A DNA stretch of 18,305 bases from Nitrospinota bacterium. Lineage in GTDB: Bacteria > UBA8248. Each line of letters starts with the position of its first letter. The stretch's first letter is position 1. Of the stretch, positions 2,202 through 17,312 are shown piece after piece. The notes below the pieces were generated by a model, which saw nothing but the letters and a program-made list of their open reading frames with translations, had not been told where the DNA came from and did not search any database. The stretch spans positions 1-18,305 of the forward strand of contig JAYGFR010000195.1 in NCBI GenBank assembly GCA_046581755.1. Reading direction: 5' to 3'. The translations under genes were made by a program, and so were the position numbers.

Positions 2202-3137
2202 TCAGGCGAGGATCGCCCTGGGAAGCATGGCGTGGACCCCTTTGATGCCGTTGACGATCTGGGTGACGTGCAGGTCCACGGCCAAGCTGCACAGCGTATA
2301 GGCGTCCTCGGCGCTCATGCCGCGCGTCTCGCCCAAAAAGCGAATCGTCTCGCGGAGGGCCATCTTCGCCGCGTTGTCGATCAGAGGGTCGAAACCCATG
2401 AGGATGTGGTGGTCCGCGGTCTCGGCGCGAGGCACTTCGAGCTTCATGTCCTTGCGGAGTCGAAGCTCGACCGTGCCCGTCAGGGCCGCCTCCAGGGCCG
2501 ATGTGCACGACTCGCCGTCGCCCTGGCAGCCATGGCCGTCGCCGATGGAAAAAAGCGCGCCCTCATGAAATACGGGGAAATACACGGTGGCGCCGGGGCC
2601 GAGCTCCTTGTTGTCCAAATTTCCGCCCCACACCCCCGGCGGTCCCGATCCGACCCGGCCCATCCCCGCCGGCGGGGCGACGCCGAAATTTCCGAAAAAC
2701 GGGGCCAGCGGAACCTTCACCCCCGCGCCCCAGTCTCCCGTGCCCGCCTCGGCGTCGATCTCCACGACGACCGAATGATGATAGGGAAAATCCTCGGGAA
2801 GCCCGCCCCGGAGCGGGCGGAAGACGTTCACCCCCCAATCGTAACGGGGCCTGGCCTCCAGAAAGCGCACCTCCAGCACATCGCCCGGCATGGCCCCCTC
2901 AACGGCCACCGGGCCGATCAGCATGTGGCCGCCCTCACCTTTTTCAACGTTTTCGAGGATGGCCAGAAGTTCCTTCGAGGCGCGAGATCGGACCCTCTCC
3001 ATGGCATCCATGAATCCCGATTCGGTATGGACGATGAGGCGATCGCCCGGCGCGGCGGTCAGAACCGGAGGCAGCGCTGCGTCGTAGTAGCCCCAATGAA
3101 CAGTATCGGGCGAGGCGGTGAGTTCATGGGTGGCCAA
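2202..3137 (-). CDS. Acetamidase/formamidase (FmdA/AmdA) family protein (311 aa, TTG start)
   Basis: GPVAVEGAMPGDVLEV, GGNLDNKEL and GALFSIGDGHGCQGDGE family motifs. The TTG start aligns with the ATG of the upstream paralogue (MATHEL); AAGGA SD. Confidence 0.92.
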   Translation of the reverse strand: MATHELTASPDTVHWGYYDAALPPVLTAAPGDRLIVHTESGFMDAMERVRSRASKELLAILENVEKGEGGHMLIGPVAVEGAMPGDVLEVRFLEARPRYDWGVNVFRPLRGGLPEDFPYHHSVVVEIDAEAGTGDWGAGVKVPLAPFFGNFGVAPPAGMGRVGSGPPGVWGGNLDNKELGPGATVYFPVFHEGALFSIGDGHGCQGDGESCTSALEAALTGTVELRLRKDMKLEVPRAETADHHILMGFDPLIDNAAKMALRETIRFLGETRGMSAEDAYTLCSLAVDLHVTQIVNGIKGVHAMLPRAILA

Positions 3138-3167
3138 AACGAGTCGTCCTTTCCGTTTTTTTTCGTT

Positions 3168-4102
3168 CTACTCGAAGAGCGATTTTGGCACCATCGCGTG
3201 GACGCCCTTGTAGCCGTTGACGATCTGGGTGACGTGCAGGTCCACGGCCAAGCTACACAGCGTATAGGCGTCCTCAGCGCTCATGCCGCGCAACTCGCCC
3301 AAAATCGGATCGTCTCGCGGAGGGCCATTTTCGCCGCGTTGTCGAGAATCGGATCGAAGCCGCCGAGGATATAGTGGGTCGGCGTCTCCGCGCGGGGCAC
3401 CTTGAGGGACATGTCTTTTCTCACGATCATCTCGAAGGTCCCGATCAGGCCCATCTCGATGCCGTTGATGTTGGCCTCCCCATCGCCCTGACAGCCGTGG
3501 CCGTCGCCCACCGAAAAGAGCGCGCCATCGTTGAAGATGGGGATATAGACGGTCGAGCCCGCGGTGAACTCTTTGTTGTCGAAGTTTCCGCCCCATTCGC
3601 CGGGAGGGGCGCTCGAGATTATCCCCATCGCCGGGGCCGGCGCGACGCCGAAATTCCCGAAGAAGGGCGCCAGCGGGACCTTTACACCCGCGCCCCAATC
3701 GCCCGTGCCCGCCTCGGCGTCCACCTCCACGACGACGACGCGCGTGTAGGGAAAGTCCTCGGGCAGGCCTCCCCCCAGCGGGTGGAAGCCGTTATAGCCC
3801 CAATCGTAGCGGGGCTGGATATCCTTAATGCGGATTTCGAGCACATCGCCGGGCCGGGCTCCCTCGATGGCCACCGGGCCCGTCATGATGTGGGCGCCGG
3901 GTCCTTTTTTCGCACTCGCGAGGATGGCGCGGACCGCCTCGGATGCGCGATCGCCGAGTTCGTCGAGCAGGTCGGCCCGGCACGATTCGGTGCGGACGAT
4001 GAGCGTATCGCCCGAGGCAATCGTCATGACGGGTTTGGTGGCGGCGTTGTAATAGCCCCATTGGATGGTTTCGGGCGTGGCAATCAGCTCATGCGTGGCC
4101 AT
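3168..4102 (-). pseudogene. Acetamidase/formamidase family gene with a 1-nt frameshift near the 3' end (true pseudogene or sequencing error)
   Basis: ATG at 4102 (MATHELIAT) with GGGGG SD; same motifs (GGNFDNKE, GDGHGCQGDGE). The frame breaks at the T4 run at 3301..3304, where the paralogue has T5 (TTT TTG GGC). The missing C-terminus LGELRGMSAEDAYTLCSLAVDLHVTQIVNGYKGVHAMVPKSLFE continues in another frame to the stop at 3168. Confidence 0.85.
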
Positions 4103-4230
4103 GGAGACCCCCTTTCGAGGTGTGGCGGGTTTGTGCGATAGCCCTGTCAGGCCCCGGATGCAGCGGCCTTCCGGACAGGCAACCCATTTGGCTGGACAGG
4201 ATTTTCCGATTTTTTCCGTAACCCGGAAGG

Positions 4231-4259
4231 ACTCTATCACCGGCATCCGGGAAGGTCAA
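4231..4259 (-). promoter_or_regulatory. Sigma70-type promoter for the amidase/cupin/oxidoreductase operon
   Basis: Minus strand reads TTGACC, a 17-nt spacer, then TAGAGT with an extended -10 TGn. It lies about 130 nt upstream of ATG 4102. Confidence 0.6.
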
Positions 4260-7823: not shown

Positions 7824-8273
7824 TTAGCCGCGCTTGTTGATGAATTCCCGATACTTGTCGGCGAGCCTCGCTTCGCGCCAGTTGTAGCCGGTCGCATCGG
7901 CCGCCTTTTCCATCTGTTCGCTCGTCCAATTGTTCGTTTCCGCAAGGTGCACCAGCGAGCAAATCCCGGCTCGCCCAGAGGCCATTCAGTGAACAAACGT
8001 TTCGCCCTCGGCGGCCGCCTCGCTGATGGCGCGGCTCACCTCGGCGAGCGACTCATCGCTGAATTCCGAGGAAGACACCGGAACGTTGAGATAGGTCATT
8101 CCCAGCGCCTCGACCTCGGCTTTGGCGCGCTCCGGAGGAAGCTCGCCCTGGTCCTCGCTGGGCAGCCTCGTGTTAATGATGGTCTTCACCCCCTTGGCGG
8201 CAAGCGCCTTGAGGTCTTCAAGCGTCGGTTGGCCGCCGAAGGAAATATTTTCGGATGCGGAATACTGGTCCAT
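7824..8273 (-). CDS. Probable selenoprotein: DUF442/Blh-like sulfurtransferase (PTP-like fold), 149 aa, Sec at residue 96
   Basis: GGQPT..DL..LA..GVKTIINTR...E and LGMTYLNVPV are the DUF442 pattern. The track ORF stops at ETFVH-TGA (7986..7988), exactly at the catalytic Cys of the HCxxGxR loop. Read-through gives H-U-MASGRAGICSLVHLAETNNWTSEQMEKAADATGYNWREARLADKYREFINKRG-TAA (7824). GAGGAG SD before ATG 8273. Confidence 0.85.
7955..7974 (-). promoter_or_regulatory. Candidate bacterial SECIS hairpin of the DUF442-like gene
   Basis: mRNA GCGAGC-CGGGAUUU-GCUCGC: perfect 6-bp stem starting 11 nt after the UGA, with a G-containing loop. Confidence 0.7.
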
Positions 8274-8327
8274 GCTCACTCCTCGGTGAATGGTAGCGTC
8301 GCATTCCCGCAGGAAGCGTCGTTCCGT

Positions 8328-10649: not shown

Positions 10650-12790
10650 ACGAAAAGGCAGAGGAAGGCCTCGCGAAATTTTGCCCATTTCGAGAGGGAT
10701 AGCCTCGGCCCCGGCCCCGGGAAATCGGCGGCCATCATATTTTCGAGAACTTTCCCGTAGACGCGGCCCATGAACCGGGCCGGGAAAAGACGCCAATGGC
10801 TGTTTTTGGGGAGAAGATCGTTTGCCTTTTGGAACAACTCCCGGGCCCGCTCCCCCTCGAACCGCAGGAGCGCCGTCAGCGCCTCGGTGCGCTCCCCGCG
10901 AAGGATGGTCTCCTCCGCCACCCCGAAGCGGCGCAGATCATCGAGGGGCAGGTAGATTCTGTCCTCGGCGGCATCCGCCCACAGATCGCGCAAAATATTC
11001 GTGAGCTGAAGGGCCCGCCCCAGGGTGCGTCCGTACCCGGTCCCGGCCTCGGAGTTTTCCCCGAACACCTTGAGACAGGCCAGCCCGACGGCCGAGGCGA
11101 CCTTGTCGCAGTAGCCGCAAAGTTCATCGAAGGTCCGGTAGCGGTTCTGATCCAGATCCATCCCCACGCCGCTGCAAACATCGAGCAGGTCTCGGGTGGA
11201 GACGCCGTAGGCCGCGACCGCGGGCTTGAGCGCCCGGAGGATGGGATGGCGGTGCTCGCGCTCCTGGAGATGGGCGACGGCATCGGCCCATTCGTCCAGG
11301 CGGCGGAGCTTTTCGCCCCGATCGCCGGGGTTGTCGGCGATATCGTCCACTGCCCGGCAGTACCCGTATATCGCCGAGAGGGCGCGGCGGCGGGCGGGCG
11401 GCAGGGAGAGAAATGCCAGGGAAAAACTCGAACGGCTGGAGCGGACATACCAACGGCAATAATTCCAGTCGGCCCGTGCGTTCGCCTCGCCGCCGATGCG
11501 CCTCCCGAGCCGGTCCGCCGGGAGAAAGGCGGCAGCAACGCAGGCCGCCTTATCGCCGGGCGTCAGGCGCGGCGAGCCCTTCAAAATATCGTGGTCCACC
11601 CGCTCGATAGATTCGAGCGCGGCAAGCCCTCCCCGGAAGATGGCCCGGAGTTCGCGCCCGAATGCGCCCCCGGTTCGCCCGAGCAGGGGAAGGCCCTCGG
11701 CAAAAAGCCCGCGTGTGCGCCTGATCTGAAAGGCCATCAGGGCCCGAAGCTCCGCTCCCGCGGTCTCGCCCGCCAACTCTTCTTCCGGCACCCCGAAGGC
11801 CGCGAGATCGGCCTGGGGGAGATACACCCTGCCCCGGAGGTAGTCCTCCTTCACATCCTGAAGATGGTTGGCAATCTGAAGAGCCGAGCAGATGGCGTCC
11901 GAGGCCCGGAACGCCTCCTCGTCCCGGACGCCATGGAGCATCAGCATGATGCGGCCCACCGGATTCGCCGACAGGCGGCAATAATCGACCAGTCCGGAAT
12001 AATCCGCGTAGCGGGAGACCGTGACATCCTGCCGGAAGGCGGCGATCAGGTCCCGGAACGGCTGAAGGGGAAGGTCATGGACGCTAATCGTACCGGCCAG
12101 GGCGGTAAACACATCTCCCTCGGCGCGGCCCTCGCCCGCGGCCTCCAGTGCCCCTTCCCACTCGTCCAGCATGGCGAGGCGCTCATCCTCCGGAGCGGAC
12201 CCGGGCAGATCGGCGAAATCGTCGGCGCACCGTGCGAAGGCATACAGAGCCGCCACATGGCGGCGCATCCGCGCCGGTAAAAATCGCGAGGCCACCGGGA
12301 AATTCTCGTAATGCTCGGCGGCCATCCGGGCGCAGGCCCGGTAGGCATCCTCCAAATTCGGCTGGGGGGATTCCGCCCGGCCGGGTGCGGGATTTTCATT
12401 CAGCATTTCGATTAAAGGTGCATCGGCGGGCAGAAAATCGAACCGGCCCAGATCGGCGGGGAGAACCCATTCATGCGCGGCGACGCCGTTGTCTTTGAGG
12501 TCGCCGCCCATCGGGCGGCACTCGTAAAAGCGCAGATGAACGATCCGGTCAGGATACGTGTGGCGGGTTTTCCACCGGAGGGAACCCACCTCCACATCGA
12601 TATCCAACTCCTCCCGAATCTCGCGAAGAAGGGCCTCTTTGTGGGTTTCGCCCGGTTCCACCTTGCCCCCGGGAAACTCCCACTTCCCGGCCAAATGCGC
12701 GCCCTCCGGACGCCGGCAGATGAGGATTCGCCCCTCACTCCGGATGATTCCGGCGGCAACCTGTGTACTGGACCGGGATTCGGTAACCAT
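10643..12790 (-). CDS. hpnCD: Triple fusion: MutT/NudG-type Nudix hydrolase + HpnC + HpnD (squalene synthesis), 715 aa
   Basis: aa 1 to about 135: HLAGKWEFPGGKVEPGETHKEALLREIREELDI Nudix box and FLPAD. Middle: HYENFPVAS, YAFARCADDFAD and LQIANHLQDV (HpnC). C-terminal: SSFSLAF, YCRAVDDIAD, VASAVGL and LQLTNILRD (HpnD). One uninterrupted frame. Confidence 0.9.
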   Translation of the reverse strand: MVTESRSSTQVAAGIIRSEGRILICRRPEGAHLAGKWEFPGGKVEPGETHKEALLREIREELDIDVEVGSLRWKTRHTYPDRIVHLRFYECRPMGGDLKDNGVAAHEWVLPADLGRFDFLPADAPLIEMLNENPAPGRAESPQPNLEDAYRACARMAAEHYENFPVASRFLPARMRRHVAALYAFARCADDFADLPGSAPEDERLAMLDEWEGALEAAGEGRAEGDVFTALAGTISVHDLPLQPFRDLIAAFRQDVTVSRYADYSGLVDYCRLSANPVGRIMLMLHGVRDEEAFRASDAICSALQIANHLQDVKEDYLRGRVYLPQADLAAFGVPEEELAGETAGAELRALMAFQIRRTRGLFAEGLPLLGRTGGAFGRELRAIFRGGLAALESIERVDHDILKGSPRLTPGDKAACVAAAFLPADRLGRRIGGEANARADWNYCRWYVRSSRSSFSLAFLSLPPARRRALSAIYGYCRAVDDIADNPGDRGEKLRRLDEWADAVAHLQEREHRHPILRALKPAVAAYGVSTRDLLDVCSGVGMDLDQNRYRTFDELCGYCDKVASAVGLACLKVFGENSEAGTGYGRTLGRALQLTNILRDLWADAAEDRIYLPLDDLRRFGVAEETILRGERTEALTALLRFEGERARELFQKANDLLPKNSHWRLFPARFMGRVYGKVLENMMAADFPGPGPRLSLSKWAKFREAFLCLFVW

Positions 12791-13574: not shown

Positions 13575-13811
13575 GAGGTGCGCCTCAACATTCAAACTGC
13601 AAGGCCAAAAAGTACATCAGCATTTCCGGCCTCTAACTCATGTGTCCGCCAAATGTATCAGGCCCTTCCCCGATGGCCAAGCAGATATCCCTTCCCGCGC
13701 CCCCCCGCCCTTGATGAGGAAGCCAAAAGGGAGGAAAATCCGCTCTCTTGAGAGGATTCACCCCCCGCCTCCACTGTGATTCGTGCGCCCCCGAGGGCGG
13801 TTTTTCTGGAT

Positions 13812-15248
13812 ATGAGGATTTCGAAATTGAACACCGATCCCGGCTCCGTGGGCTTGACCGAAACGAAGTATTACACTTTGTCCGGGCCGTTCCGGACCGA
13901 TTCCGGGCGGGAACTCGCAGGAGTCCGCGTGGCCTATGAAACCTATGGAGAGCTGAACGCCTCCAAGGACAACGCCCTTCTCGTCATCCATGCCCTGACG
14001 GGAGACGCCCATGCGGCGGGGGTGCACAGTCCGGACGACCCGCGCTCCGGCTGGTGGGACCCCATGATCGGCCCCGGAAAAGCTATCGATACGGACCGGT
14101 ATTTCGTCGTCAGCACGAACAACCTCGGCGGTTGCTCCGGGACGACGGGGCCTGCGTCCATCGACCCGGCCTCGGGCCGCCCGTTCGGAACGGATTTTCC
14201 AGTTGTGACCGTCGAGGATACGGTCCGGCTCCAAAAGGCGCTTTTGGACGAACTCGGGGTGCGGCGCCTTCGCTCGGTCATCGGCGGCTCGATGGCGGGG
14301 ATGCAGACCCTCGAATGGGGACTGCGCTACAGCGATTTTTGCGATTCGGTCATTCCGGTCGCCGGGGCCGCCCGGCTGACGCCGATGGGAATTGCATGGG
14401 ATAAAATCGCCCGCTCGGCCATAATGGCCGACGCCGACTGGCGCGAGGGCGTCTACAACTCGGACGGCGGGCCTCGAAAAGGCCTGAGCGTGGCCCGCAT
14501 GATCGCCCACATCACCTACCTCAGCGGCCCCATCATGTGGGAAAAATTCGGGCGGAGGGTTCGCGACGAGGGAGAGCTTTTGAACGAGATCACCGCCCGC
14601 TTCGAGGTGGAGAGCTACCTCGACCACCAAGGTGAAAAATTCGTGGACCGCTTCGATGCTAATTCCTATCTCTACCTTTCGAGGATGATGGACCTCTACG
14701 ACGCATCGGCGGGCCATCCGAACCTCGAAGCCGCCCTCGATCGGCTGCGGACCAAATGCATGCTCATCTGCTTTATTTCGGACTGGCTCTTTCCCCCGCA
14801 CTGCAGCATCGAAATCGCCGAGGCCCTTCGGAAACTCGGCCGAGAGGTGGAGCTTCACAACATCGAGTCCACCTACGGGCACGATGCGTTTCTCGTCCAA
14901 ATCGATCCGCTTACGCGGGTCGTGGGCGATTTTCTCAACCGCCTGGACGCGAACGGCCCCATCGGAATCGATACGATGCCGATTCCCCCGGGTACGCGGC
15001 GGCTGGTTTGCACCTTTCCTGCCGAGGAGGTGCGCAGGCCGGTGCTATGGGAGTTGGCGAAAAAGTTTCCTTTCGCCATCAACATCATCCGCGGTGACGT
15101 GAGCAGCGACTCGGGGTGGCAGGTGTGCGAGTTCGAGGGCGATCCGGGCGACATCGCCGAGGCGGTCGCGTATCTCAGGGACCGGGGAATCTGGGTCGAT
15201 CCCGGAGGAGGGGGGTCTATCGACCACGACCGGGCCGAGGTGGTATAA
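13812..15248 (+). CDS. metX: Homoserine O-acyltransferase (MetX, alpha/beta hydrolase fold) with C-terminal NIL domain
   Basis: AYETYGELN, HALTGDAHAAG, GWWDPMIGPGKAIDTDRYFVV; catalytic triad GGSMAG / SDWLF / GHDAFL; RFDANSY. An extra ~80 aa C-terminal segment resembles a NIL domain. Start is ATG 13812 or TTG 13827 (GAGGA SD). Confidence 0.93.
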   Translation: MRISKLNTDPGSVGLTETKYYTLSGPFRTDSGRELAGVRVAYETYGELNASKDNALLVIHALTGDAHAAGVHSPDDPRSGWWDPMIGPGKAIDTDRYFVVSTNNLGGCSGTTGPASIDPASGRPFGTDFPVVTVEDTVRLQKALLDELGVRRLRSVIGGSMAGMQTLEWGLRYSDFCDSVIPVAGAARLTPMGIAWDKIARSAIMADADWREGVYNSDGGPRKGLSVARMIAHITYLSGPIMWEKFGRRVRDEGELLNEITARFEVESYLDHQGEKFVDRFDANSYLYLSRMMDLYDASAGHPNLEAALDRLRTKCMLICFISDWLFPPHCSIEIAEALRKLGREVELHNIESTYGHDAFLVQIDPLTRVVGDFLNRLDANGPIGIDTMPIPPGTRRLVCTFPAEEVRRPVLWELAKKFPFAINIIRGDVSSDSGWQVCEFEGDPGDIAEAVAYLRDRGIWVDPGGGGSIDHDRAEVV

Positions 15249-15259
15249 ATAAGTATACT

Positions 15260-15290
15260 GGCCTGCCTTAAAAATCCGGGCGGGCCTTTT
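15260..15290 (+). terminator. Possible intrinsic terminator after metX
   Basis: GGCCTGCC...GGCGGGCC stem (one G-U pair) followed by TTTT, 12 nt after the metX stop. Confidence 0.5.
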
Positions 15291-15349
15291 CGATCATTTG
15301 AATTCCGGTTTCCCCGCAAGAGGCATTCGAAATCCTGAGGAGATCTCCA

Positions 15350-15982
15350 ATGAGCGAGTTGAAGGAACCCATTGTCGTCGTGAAATATTCGGACTTCACC
15401 TGACCCTACTGCTATGTGGCCACCGTGGGTGGCACGCCGGTCATCGAGGAAGACCCCGAGGTCCTGGTCGAATGGGTCAGCTGGGAGGGCCGTCCTCCGG
15501 GGCAGGAATTCAAGAAGCGCAAGCCCGGAGAGGGGAAAGAAAACTACGAGAAAAACCACAAGCCTCTCGCCGCGAAATACGACGTTCCCCTCAATCCGGC
15601 CAGCAGCAGTCACCGGACGACGAACGCCCACATGGCCACCTACTACGCGCGCGACAAGGGCAAGTTCAAGGAATTCCGCAACCGCATCTACAAGGCCCGC
15701 TGGGTGGAGGACCTCGACCTCGAGAGCCCCGATGTCCTCGCCCGGTGCGGGGAGAAAGTCGGCCTCGACGGAGAGGAAATCAAGCAGGTCATCGCCGAAA
15801 AGCGCTACCTCGCCTCCCTCCACAGCCAACGGGAGCAAGGCAAGAGCCTGGGCATCTTCGGCATCCCCTCCTTCGTCGTCGAGGGGAAAATTTTCTGGGG
15901 CAAGGATGTTATCGACGACGTAAAGAATGAGGTCGAGCGCGTCAAACAAGAGCGCCTGGAGAAACAAAACCAAGAAAACTAG
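15350..15982 (+). CDS. Probable selenoprotein: DsbA/FrnE-like thioredoxin-fold protein, 210 aa, U18-P-Y-C21
   Basis: GAGGAG SD, ATG 15350: MSELKEPIVVVKYSDFT-TGA(15401..15403)-PYCYVATVGG, in frame with track ORF 15416..15982. YSDFxCPxCY is the family active site. The cis-Pro motif GIFGIPSFVVEGKIFWG lies near the C-terminus. Confidence 0.92.
15415..15436 (+). promoter_or_regulatory. Candidate bacterial SECIS hairpin (DsbA-like copy 1)
   Basis: GCCACC-GUG-GGUGGC core (15419..15433), extendable by UGU/ACG with one bulged G. The extended stem begins 11 nt after UGA and the loop 21 nt after it. Confidence 0.75.
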
Positions 15983-16050
15983 GAGGGCGGGGCCGCCCGG
16001 ATTCGATCGTTTTTCACGGAGGCCCTGCCCCTGCCAAGGGAGATTCATCC

Positions 16051-16686
16051 ATGGGCGAACTCAAGGAACCCATCGTGGTCGTCAAGTACTCCGATTTCAC
16101 CTGACCCTTCTGCTACGTGGCCACCGTGGGTGGCGTGCCGATCATCGAGGAAGACCCCGACGTCCGGGTCGAGTGGATCGGCTGGGAAGGAAGACCGCCG
16201 GGGCAGGATTTCGCCGGATATTCTCCCCGGGACAAACAAGAGAACTACGAAAATAAACATAAGCCCCTCGCCGAAAAGTACAATGTACCCATCCGGCTGG
16301 CGGGAGCGGACTACCGCACGACGAACGCCCACATGGTCACCATTTACGCGCGCGACAAGGGGAAGTTCAAGGAATTCCGCGACCGCATCTACAAGGCGCG
16401 GTGGGTGGATGACCTCGATCTCGAAAGCCCAGAAATTCTCGCCCGGTGCGGCGAGGAAGTCGGCCTTGACGGAGAGGAAATCAAGCAGGTCATCGCCGAA
16501 AAGCGCTACCTCGCAACCCTTCACAGCCAGCGGGCACAAGGAAAGAGCCTGGGCATCTACGGCATCCCCTCCTTCGTCGTCCAGGGAAAGATTTTCTGGG
16601 GAATCGATGTGATCGACGATGTGCGGGCTGAGGTGGCGCGGCTCAAGGAAGAAAAGCTCGCCGAGCAAAACAGCAAGGAAGGTTAG
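16051..16686 (+). CDS. Probable selenoprotein: DsbA/FrnE-like thioredoxin-fold protein, 211 aa, U18-P-F-C21 (tandem paralogue)
   Basis: AGGGAG SD, ATG 16051: MGELKEPIVVVKYSDFT-TGA(16102..16104)-PFCYVATVGG, in frame with track ORF 16117..16686; GIYGIPSFVVQGKIFWG. Confidence 0.92.
16120..16134 (+). promoter_or_regulatory. Candidate bacterial SECIS hairpin (DsbA-like copy 2)
   Basis: GCCACC-GUG-GGUGGC, identical in sequence and distance from the UGA to copy 1. Confidence 0.75.
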
Positions 16687-16919
16687 GCCCGATATTCGGG
16701 CCGGTGGGCCGCCCGTCCTGAACCTGTCCGGTGGCGGGCGGGCAATCTGGCCGCGCCGGGGAAGTAGAGTCCCCCGAACCACCGCGCCTTTCTTGCAGCG
16801 GAAAATCCATCAAAGGAGTGTATCTATACCGCGCCGGCAAAAGATCCCTCGGCGAACGGCGGAAGGTGGCACCCGCCGGGAGAATCGGCGAGATTTTTCG
16901 GGACATTGCGGCGCTTCTT

Positions 16920-17312
16920 TTACGATGGGAGCAGGACCACCGCCTCGATCTCGACGATATCGCCCTGATTCAGCGCCCGGACCTCGACGATGGTCCGCGT
17001 GGGTAGATTTTCACCGAAATATTCCTCGTACATCCGATTGATGACCGGACGGTGGGCGCTCATGTCGGTGACGTAGACCGTCGTAGATAGGAAGGCGGAC
17101 ATCGAGCCCCCAGCCGCCTCGGCGATGGCCTTGAGGTTCTCGAAGGTGCGCCGGGCGCGCGTCTCGATGTCCGGCGCGACGAGTTTGCCCGTCGCCGGGT
17201 CGATGCCGCGCTGGCCGGCGATGAACAATAGGTTCCCGGCGCGGCGGGCCTGGGCAAACGGCCCGGTGGGGCGCGGCGCATCGCCGGTCTGGATGGATTG
17301 GGGTTCAGTCAA
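16920..17312 (-). CDS. RidA/YjgF/YER057c family enamine/imine deaminase
   Basis: APRPTGPFAQA..AGNLLFIAGQ.GIDP, FENLKAI, LPTRT (catalytic Arg retained) and VEIEAV. The start is uncertain; TTG 17312 gives the usual ~130 aa. The track's 201-aa version overlaps the upstream gene. Confidence 0.88.
   Translation of the reverse strand: MTEPQSIQTGDAPRPTGPFAQARRAGNLLFIAGQRGIDPATGKLVAPDIETRARRTFENLKAIAEAAGGSMSAFLSTTVYVTDMSAHRPVINRMYEEYFGENLPTRTIVEVRALNQGDIVEIEAVVLLPS

Follow-up and report, generated by a model that had tools for sequence, protein, structure and literature searches.

The 18,305-nt stretch of Nitrospinota DNA analysed here in its entirety (the window) carries two head-to-tail genes on its + strand which, as read from the sequence, occupy positions 15350–15982 and 16051–16686 with 68 nt between them. 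Both are very probably selenoprotein genes of the known FrnE/DsbA-like thioredoxin-fold family, an in-frame TGA at codon 18 of each being the predicted site of selenocysteine (Sec) insertion. The family itself has already been catalogued, and neither a new recoding mechanism nor a new family is revealed by this work. The main news lies in the truncation of these genes by gene callers and in the age and divergence of the pair.

The gene pair

The features of the pair and its surroundings are as follows, in window coordinates.

13776–15248, + strand: MetX-family homoserine O-acyltransferase gene with a NIL domain at its C-terminus, immediately preceding the first selenoprotein gene
15337–15342, + strand: SD-like GAGGAG of copy 1, 7 nt before ATG 15350
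15350–15982, + strand: copy 1, predicted DsbA/FrnE-like selenoprotein gene, 210 aa when read through, stop TAG 15980–15982
15401–15403, + strand: in-frame TGA of copy 1, codon 18, putative Sec18 where CxxC has its first Cys
15419–15433, + strand: predicted SECIS of copy 1, GCCACC-GUG-GGUGGC, loop 15425–15427, 21 nt after the TGA
15767–15813, + strand: 47-nt run identical between the copies, within the low-pS codons 91–185
15983–16050, + strand: 68-nt spacer between the copies, with a GC-rich inverted repeat (15985–15998) and the SD of copy 2
16036–16042, + strand: SD of copy 2, AAGGGAG, before ATG 16051
16051–16686, + strand: copy 2, predicted DsbA/FrnE-like selenoprotein gene, 211 aa when read through, stop TAG 16684–16686
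16102–16104, + strand: in-frame TGA of copy 2, codon 18, putative Sec18
16120–16134, + strand: predicted SECIS of copy 2, its 15-nt core identical to that of copy 1, loop 16126–16128

This layout agrees with a preliminary description of the same DNA, in which both copies begin with an SD and ATG and run through 17 codons to the TGA and then P-Y/F-C. A purine-rich element also precedes the codon-1 start in homologues, as seen in the extracted loci. ORF calling with table 11 puts the starts at GTG 15416 (copy 1) and GTG 16117 (copy 2). No + strand terminator-like site was called within the spacer, and a promoter scan of 15150–16950 returned no sigma-70-type sites; terminator-like sites in the same interval number four against 3.0 expected, which is uninformative.

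The tandem did not arise in assembly, because contigs in 4/4 DNA runs (from at most four studies, one of which may be the source sample) bridge the spacer with 99%+ identity and because both copies lie together on the metagenome contigs L063 and L065. In one run, X1, depth falls to about half of the flanking level in the contig that lies between the two 47-nt repeats, a dip seen in none of the other three, but contig depth is not copy number and nothing is concluded from it. Contigs from four metatranscriptomes cover parts of both copies, which may or may not reflect transcription and co-transcription; the TGA of copy 1 is spanned by two such contigs and that of copy 2 by one, with no letter changed.

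Divergence of the two copies

Identity between the copies is 76% for protein and 79% for DNA, and they share identical runs of 47, 22, 19, 19, 18 and 18 nt. Ahead of the TGA their differences are mostly silent, as the preliminary description had pointed out (ATT/ATC, AAA/AAG, TAT/TAC, TCG/TCC and GAC/GAT are all found in the alignment), and its claim of protein-level selection on this segment is borne out by a pS of 0.81 and a pN of 0.054 for codons 2–17, where S2/G2 is the only amino-acid difference. Along the gene as a whole, pS between the copies is 0.68–0.81 for codons 2–17, 53–90 and 186–205, 0.30 for codons 29–52 and 0.28 for codons 91–185. Since silent divergence is lower in codons 91–185, this pattern suggests gene conversion there, with partial homogenisation of the 3′ half.

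The two proteins differ in two segments, residues 53–60 and 81–88, which are loops in the AlphaFold model described below. With L029 left out, 22/23 orthologues present as a single copy show F[AS][GP]Y around residue 55, and 23/23 show [DN]xRTT around residue 88. Both motifs are found in copy 2, which is of this common type (FAGYSP / PIRLAGADYRTT), and neither is found in copy 1, a divergent ‘upstream’ type with the loops FKKRKPGE / PLNPASSSHRTT. Three class genomes possess an unlinked second copy (L079, L081 and L083, in G055, G052 and G057); the loops of these are of a third kind (FKSFTPE, IIVVSKNSYRTT) and the genes are not beside metX.

Counterparts of the pair are found in other assemblies. 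In one of these, locus L077 has a copy-1-type N-half that is 85% identical to that of copy 1, located after metX at a contig end, whilst L064, from the same assembly, opens with the last part of an upstream copy, after which comes a complete copy with 87% identity to copy 2; we infer that these two contigs belong to one pair. Amongst database proteins, the accession numbers of P0006 and P0049 follow one another, and the members of each of the pairs P0006/P0049, P0016/P0070 and P0019/P0010 come from contigs of equal length and are presumably adjacent. P0064 continues out of frame into the beginning of a second copy, ending at the Sec codon position of that copy, and would likewise form part of an adjacent pair. 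A further entry, P0005, matches a G030-type protein in its N-half and copy 1 in its C-half, and is probably a chimeric assembly.

Phylogenetic analysis of the N-half groups copy 1 of the window genome (G000) with L077, P0073, P0006 and P0016 at a bootstrap value of 99. In a second N-half tree, the upstream and downstream sets are split by a branch with support 76/98 that is present in 100% of 200 bootstrap trees. AU tests reject within-genome sister relationships for the window copies (p 4e-8) and for L077/L064 (p 4e-5), and with them a recent in-genome duplication. In a full-length protein tree built by a quick method the upstream copies are not grouped, and the C-half tree is poorly resolved, so that only the N-half separates the subtypes; loop convergence between upstream copies may have contributed. 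Taken as a whole, the pair very probably derives from a duplication older than the species, and its members are of two subtypes distinguished by a pair of loops.

We tentatively go one step further and suggest that this may be an old, repeatedly retained two-gene Sec-FrnE cassette of a marine lineage rich in selenoproteins, in which the upstream copy represents a separate, previously undescribed subtype, its substrate loops rebuilt and basic and its targets its own, the downstream copy keeps the ancestral job and both share one frozen SECIS. If true, this would offer two naturally matched enzymes with which to study the acquisition of new specificity by selenoenzymes. It is also quite conceivable that both genes encode real selenoproteins but that copy 1 serves only dosage, is redundant and drifts as selection on it relaxes, without a substrate of its own. 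Relaxed constraint fits the loop region as well as new function does, because pN/pS in codons 53–90 is 0.5 and not >1, giving no sign of positive selection, and no tandem was found in the other 50 class genomes searched, including four of the same genus. Against mere redundancy, copy 1 has kept its TGA, SECIS and intact frame with a pN/pS of 0.33 overall, there are no indels among strains across the four DNA runs, and the loop type is retained in another species (that of L077) and in further assemblies.

Protein family, fold and active site

When read through, the two proteins match PF01323 (DSBA) from position 2 to 190 with 95.3 and 92.7 bits, against a gathering cut-off of 25.6, whilst the GTG-started forms match only from 60/65 to 190 (77/72 bits). 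The active-site motif is U18-P-Y-C21 in copy 1 (codons TGA CCC TAC TGC) and U18-P-F-C21 in copy 2 (TGA CCC TTC TGC). U18 aligns with the first Cys of the CPWC of FrnE, an alignment that the preliminary description required for its reading, and the G-I-P173 of copy 1 aligns with GVP. The only Cys residues besides U18 are C21 and C133. Below the curated cut-off of 190 bits, the proteins score 39.5 and 38.6 bits against NF041057 (Rcas_1661 family (seleno)lipoprotein).

An AlphaFold model with Cys in place of Sec, built on a 56-row family alignment, has a pLDDT of 95.5, with a strand at residues 8–14 and a helix at 19–32, and Foldseek ranks FrnE first against it (E 9e-12, TM 0.77–0.84). An earlier model, built from a 26-row, mostly truncated alignment, reached a pLDDT of only 63 and its Foldseek result was set aside. 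In the better model the 17 codons upstream of the TGA provide the first strand of the thioredoxin fold. Starting at the GTG would, on this model, delete that strand, the start of helix 1 and the redox motif. Neither protein has a hydrophobic signal or membrane stretch (maximum 19-residue hydropathy 1.1/1.3), and from the absence of a hydrophobic leader a cytoplasmic location is predicted.

It is improbable that these selenoproteins act as glutathione-type enzymes (kappa-GST or HCCA isomerase-like) or as small-molecule reductases rather than on protein disulfides. The HCCA isomerase-like structure 3fz5 is the next best match (E 7e-9; TM 0.77), its C-terminal region resembles the GIFGIPSF...FWGxD seen here and HCCA isomerase is the name under which the truncated proteins appear in some sources. 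However, a 56-row family profile finds Deinococcus FrnE as the best of 31 PDB sequences at E 1.6e-38, some 22 orders of magnitude ahead of 3fz5 (6e-16), and the UxxC motif is complete. Moreover, in the genome (96.5% complete) there is no match over cut-off for glutathione synthesis, in a search comprising GCS2 (no match) and gshB (below cut-off only). DsbB also has no match there. The evidence thus favours a FrnE-like protein disulfide reductase or isomerase.

Decoding of the UGA codon

The proposal that both copies are Sec-recoded draws support from the genome’s Sec machinery, from the alignment of the TGA across homologues and from the selection seen upstream of it. The selA, selB and selD genes are found over curated cut-offs in the genome together with a tRNA-Sec, so that the machinery looked for after the preliminary description is present. 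SelD (L005, G000:C268) is itself a predicted selenoprotein, with an in-frame TGA (GG-U-GSK) and a hairpin, GGGUCC-GGA-GGACCU, after its UGA. Across the class, selA is found in 49/51 genomes, the two misses being 67% and 79% complete.

By protein search the gene has matches in 47/51 class genomes and in 41/41 other family members. Class-wide, 57/59 matches have the in-frame TGA, the other two being C-terminal fragments that start after residue 58, and all 27/27 extracted homologous loci have U-P-[YF]-C around the TGA. Eighteen distant homologues carry TGC/TGT at this position; they were selected by their CPYC pattern, and no frequency can be derived from them. One orthologue, L029 (G019:C568), has an extra in-frame TAA near codon 57 and is either a broken copy or a sequencing error.

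As the preliminary description anticipated, standard annotation from the GTG loses the active site: it is absent from 58/59 homologues in the protein database, and the remaining one has W at the TGA position. Re-annotation from the ATG corrects this error, which affects the whole clade. That gene callers treat the UGA in this way is what speaks for its being a real stop, with GTG 15416/16117 as starts giving CxxC-less proteins, or for the genes being pseudogenes. This is nevertheless very improbable: there is no SD ahead of the GTG and the base preceding it is part of a Tyr codon, codons 2–17 are under purifying selection, TGA and never TAA or TAG is found at the catalytic position in the 27/27 loci, and a GTG start would leave the fold without its opening strand and without the beginning of helix 1. 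Equally hard to credit is a variant code that assigns UGA to Trp, Cys or Gly, or an artefactual tandem, for although W stands at the Sec position in some entries from close relatives, ARAGORN finds a tRNA-Trp(CCA) and one tRNA-Sec(TCA), homologous genes of relatives end in TGA and the spacer is bridged as described above. The W entries (P0022, P0076, P0078, P0079, P0081 and P0083, of which P0076 carries an AACY02 tag) likely reflect a gene caller picking a TGA=Trp table. Selenocysteine at codon 18 is the reading that we carry forward.

The hairpin downstream of the UGA

The bacterial SECIS (bSECIS) model specifies a loop of 3–9 nt with G in position 1–2, a stem of 4–16 bp, a distance of 16–37 nt from the UGA to the loop and an MFE of ≤ −7.5 kcal/mol (PMC13188914). 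The hairpin found here lies within all of these terms, with a GUG loop, C-G closing, 6 bp, a distance of 21 nt and −8.9 kcal/mol, and its loop, which opens with G-U, follows the N1-G[G/U]-N-N2 pattern. In its local context the stem of copy 1 pairs with probabilities of 0.9–0.99 and that of copy 2 with about 0.74. A hairpin of this kind stands at the right distance after 486 of 16,509 sampled TGA triplets of the genome (2.9%).

Further support comes from codon usage. In a set of 25 close rows, which contains both copies from the window but neither L029 nor three distant paralogues, Ala24 is GCC in 25/25, Gly27 is GGT in 25/25 and Thr25 is ACC in 24/25, whilst the third base of the hairpin loop is variable; GGT accounts for 11% of the Gly codons in long ORFs of the genome. 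In a set of 24 rows, from which L029 (internal TAA) and L027 (start mis-picked) were dropped, no other of the 198 five-codon windows has a pS as low as that of codons 24–28 (0.137; median 0.64). For 30 rows, eight of them distant paralogues, 85.6% of the stem cells are paired, compared with 38–67% in slid controls. These conservation counts are not formal tests because kin are not independent.

The preliminary description had also stressed an invariant 18-nt block (15416–15433 / 16117–16134). The block is indeed identical in the two copies, but identity alone is weak evidence against a background in this pair that is equal to it, runs as long or longer lying elsewhere, and we rejected it as an argument. 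Support for the hairpin therefore comes from the homologues and from its position, not from the identity of the two copies. The SECIS check proposed at the same time gave a mixed outcome: the hairpin fits the bSECIS model, but two-sided change is seen in just 1/6 stem pairs, all within six related distant sequences, and 460/500 shuffles reach as much. True covariation is thin because the stem is near-invariant among close homologues. Regional folding energy shows no excess stability in 6/6 folds (z −0.85 to +0.61 against shuffles) and, since this is not significant, was dropped as SECIS evidence. Rfam has no match at the hairpins, its sole match in the window being a tRNA-Val. With its strong silent-site constraint, the hairpin makes a clean case of a predicted SECIS.

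Proposed mechanism and function

We envisage that translation starts at the SD and ATG and that SelB, acting on the GCCACC-GUG-GGUGGC hairpin, would deliver Sec-tRNA to the UGA at codon 18. A disulfide of the substrate would then come under attack from Sec18, which sits where the first helix begins, and the resulting mixed bond would be resolved by Cys21 to yield a selenenylsulfide; the roles of nucleophile and resolving residue follow general CxxC chemistry. Both enzymes are predicted to be cytoplasmic disulfide reductases or isomerases. Re-reduction would proceed via the NADPH–thioredoxin reductase system, a route suggested because trxB is found over cut-off in the genome, DsbB and glutathione synthesis have no match there in the search described above, and the proteins lack a C-terminal CxxxxC.

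Copy 2 retains the common loop residues, whilst the two altered loops of copy 1 likely give it different substrates or partners. From the sequences at hand, the chances that the two copies differ in substrate in this way, as opposed to copy 1 being redundant and relaxed, may be put as about even.

Neighbouring genes and further candidates

In most family-level relatives a single copy of the gene follows a metX-like gene, with ridA often nearby. The window genome encodes a third, distant DsbA-like gene (L089; G000:C356:8458-8985, − strand) with the motif SDFL-U-PWC, and its homologues carry the TGA in the six relatives fetched.

The window itself contains a third selenoprotein candidate on the − strand at 8279–7825, a DUF442/Blh-type sulfur-transferase-like protein of 151 aa (PF04273; TIGR01244 below cut-off) with its TGA at 7988–7986. 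The putative Sec codon lies in FVH-U-MASGRAG, a site that we take to be the catalytic Cys position of DUF442-type proteins, and is followed by a 6-bp hairpin with its loop 17 nt downstream. One TGA is present in each of 36/36 matches, from 24/31 family genomes, and it is at the same site in 8/8 checked. Neither PF04273 nor TIGR01244 appears in a published table of 119 selenoprotein families (PMC13188914) and our literature search found no paper on a selenoprotein DUF442 or TIGR01244; this candidate is more novel than the DsbA/FrnE-like pair.

Elsewhere in the window, a 715-aa fusion (12790–10643, − strand) joins a NUDIX domain to a pair of squalene/phytoene synthase domains and is followed by a flavin amine-oxidase-family gene at 10796–9285; together these presumably resemble a hopanoid HpnC-HpnD-HpnE-type cluster. 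Two more tandem paralogue pairs lie on the − strand, at 1444–2180 and 2202–4246, comprising two 120-aa proteins without a Pfam match and two acetamidase/formamidase-family genes. The window is rich in local duplications.

Comparison with known systems

The HCCA isomerases and kappa-class GSTs (PDB 3fz5, 2imd, 3rpp) use GSH and have Ser in place of CxxC. They share the fold and a similar C-terminal FWGxD with the proteins described here, but their profile match is much weaker. Periplasmic DsbA, the partner of DsbB, has the same thioredoxin fold with a helical insertion and appears at lower Foldseek ranks; in contrast, the present proteins have no signal or membrane segment and the genome has no DsbB match.

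The closest characterised relative is FrnE of Deinococcus radiodurans (DR_0659; PDB 5cp1, 5co3, 5cnw, 5xwh), described as a cytoplasmic DsbA-family disulfide reductase/isomerase (PMC8945050). The two have in common the fold, the N-terminal SDxxCPxC position, a cis-Pro-type G-x-P and the lack of a signal peptide. They differ in that identity is only about 22%, in that Sec would replace the first Cys here and in that the C-terminal CxxxxC of FrnE is absent, just U18, C21 and C133 being present. Regeneration must consequently differ from that of FrnE. The C-terminal CxxxxC is found in many, but not all, FrnE proteins (PMC8945050).

That DsbA-like selenoproteins are known, as the preliminary description stated, is correct. 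In two metagenomic surveys, a UxxC ‘DsbA-like protein’ (COG2761) is listed with nine Sargasso Sea sequences from 2005 (PMC1088965) and ‘DsbA 1’ (pfam01323, UxxC) with 63 GOS sequences (PMC2398784). The 119-family table includes ‘DsbA-like protein form 1’ (PF01323, UxxC) as a high-confidence prediction, not experimentally verified (PMC13188914), and GTDB UBA8248 MAGs, with 48–54 selenoprotein genes, are among the ten most selenoprotein-rich genomes of BSepDB (PMC13326102). A literature search that left most subscription journals outside its scope found no paper on a tandem pair.

Likened by description, the genes analysed here resemble DsbA-like selenoprotein form 1 in belonging to PF01323, in having a single Sec in UxxC with the SECIS right after the UGA and in coming from marine bacteria; they differ in that a single lineage carries two loop subtypes in tandem. 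A catalogued, predicted family has thereby split into subtypes that stand next to each other and lend themselves to direct experimental comparison.
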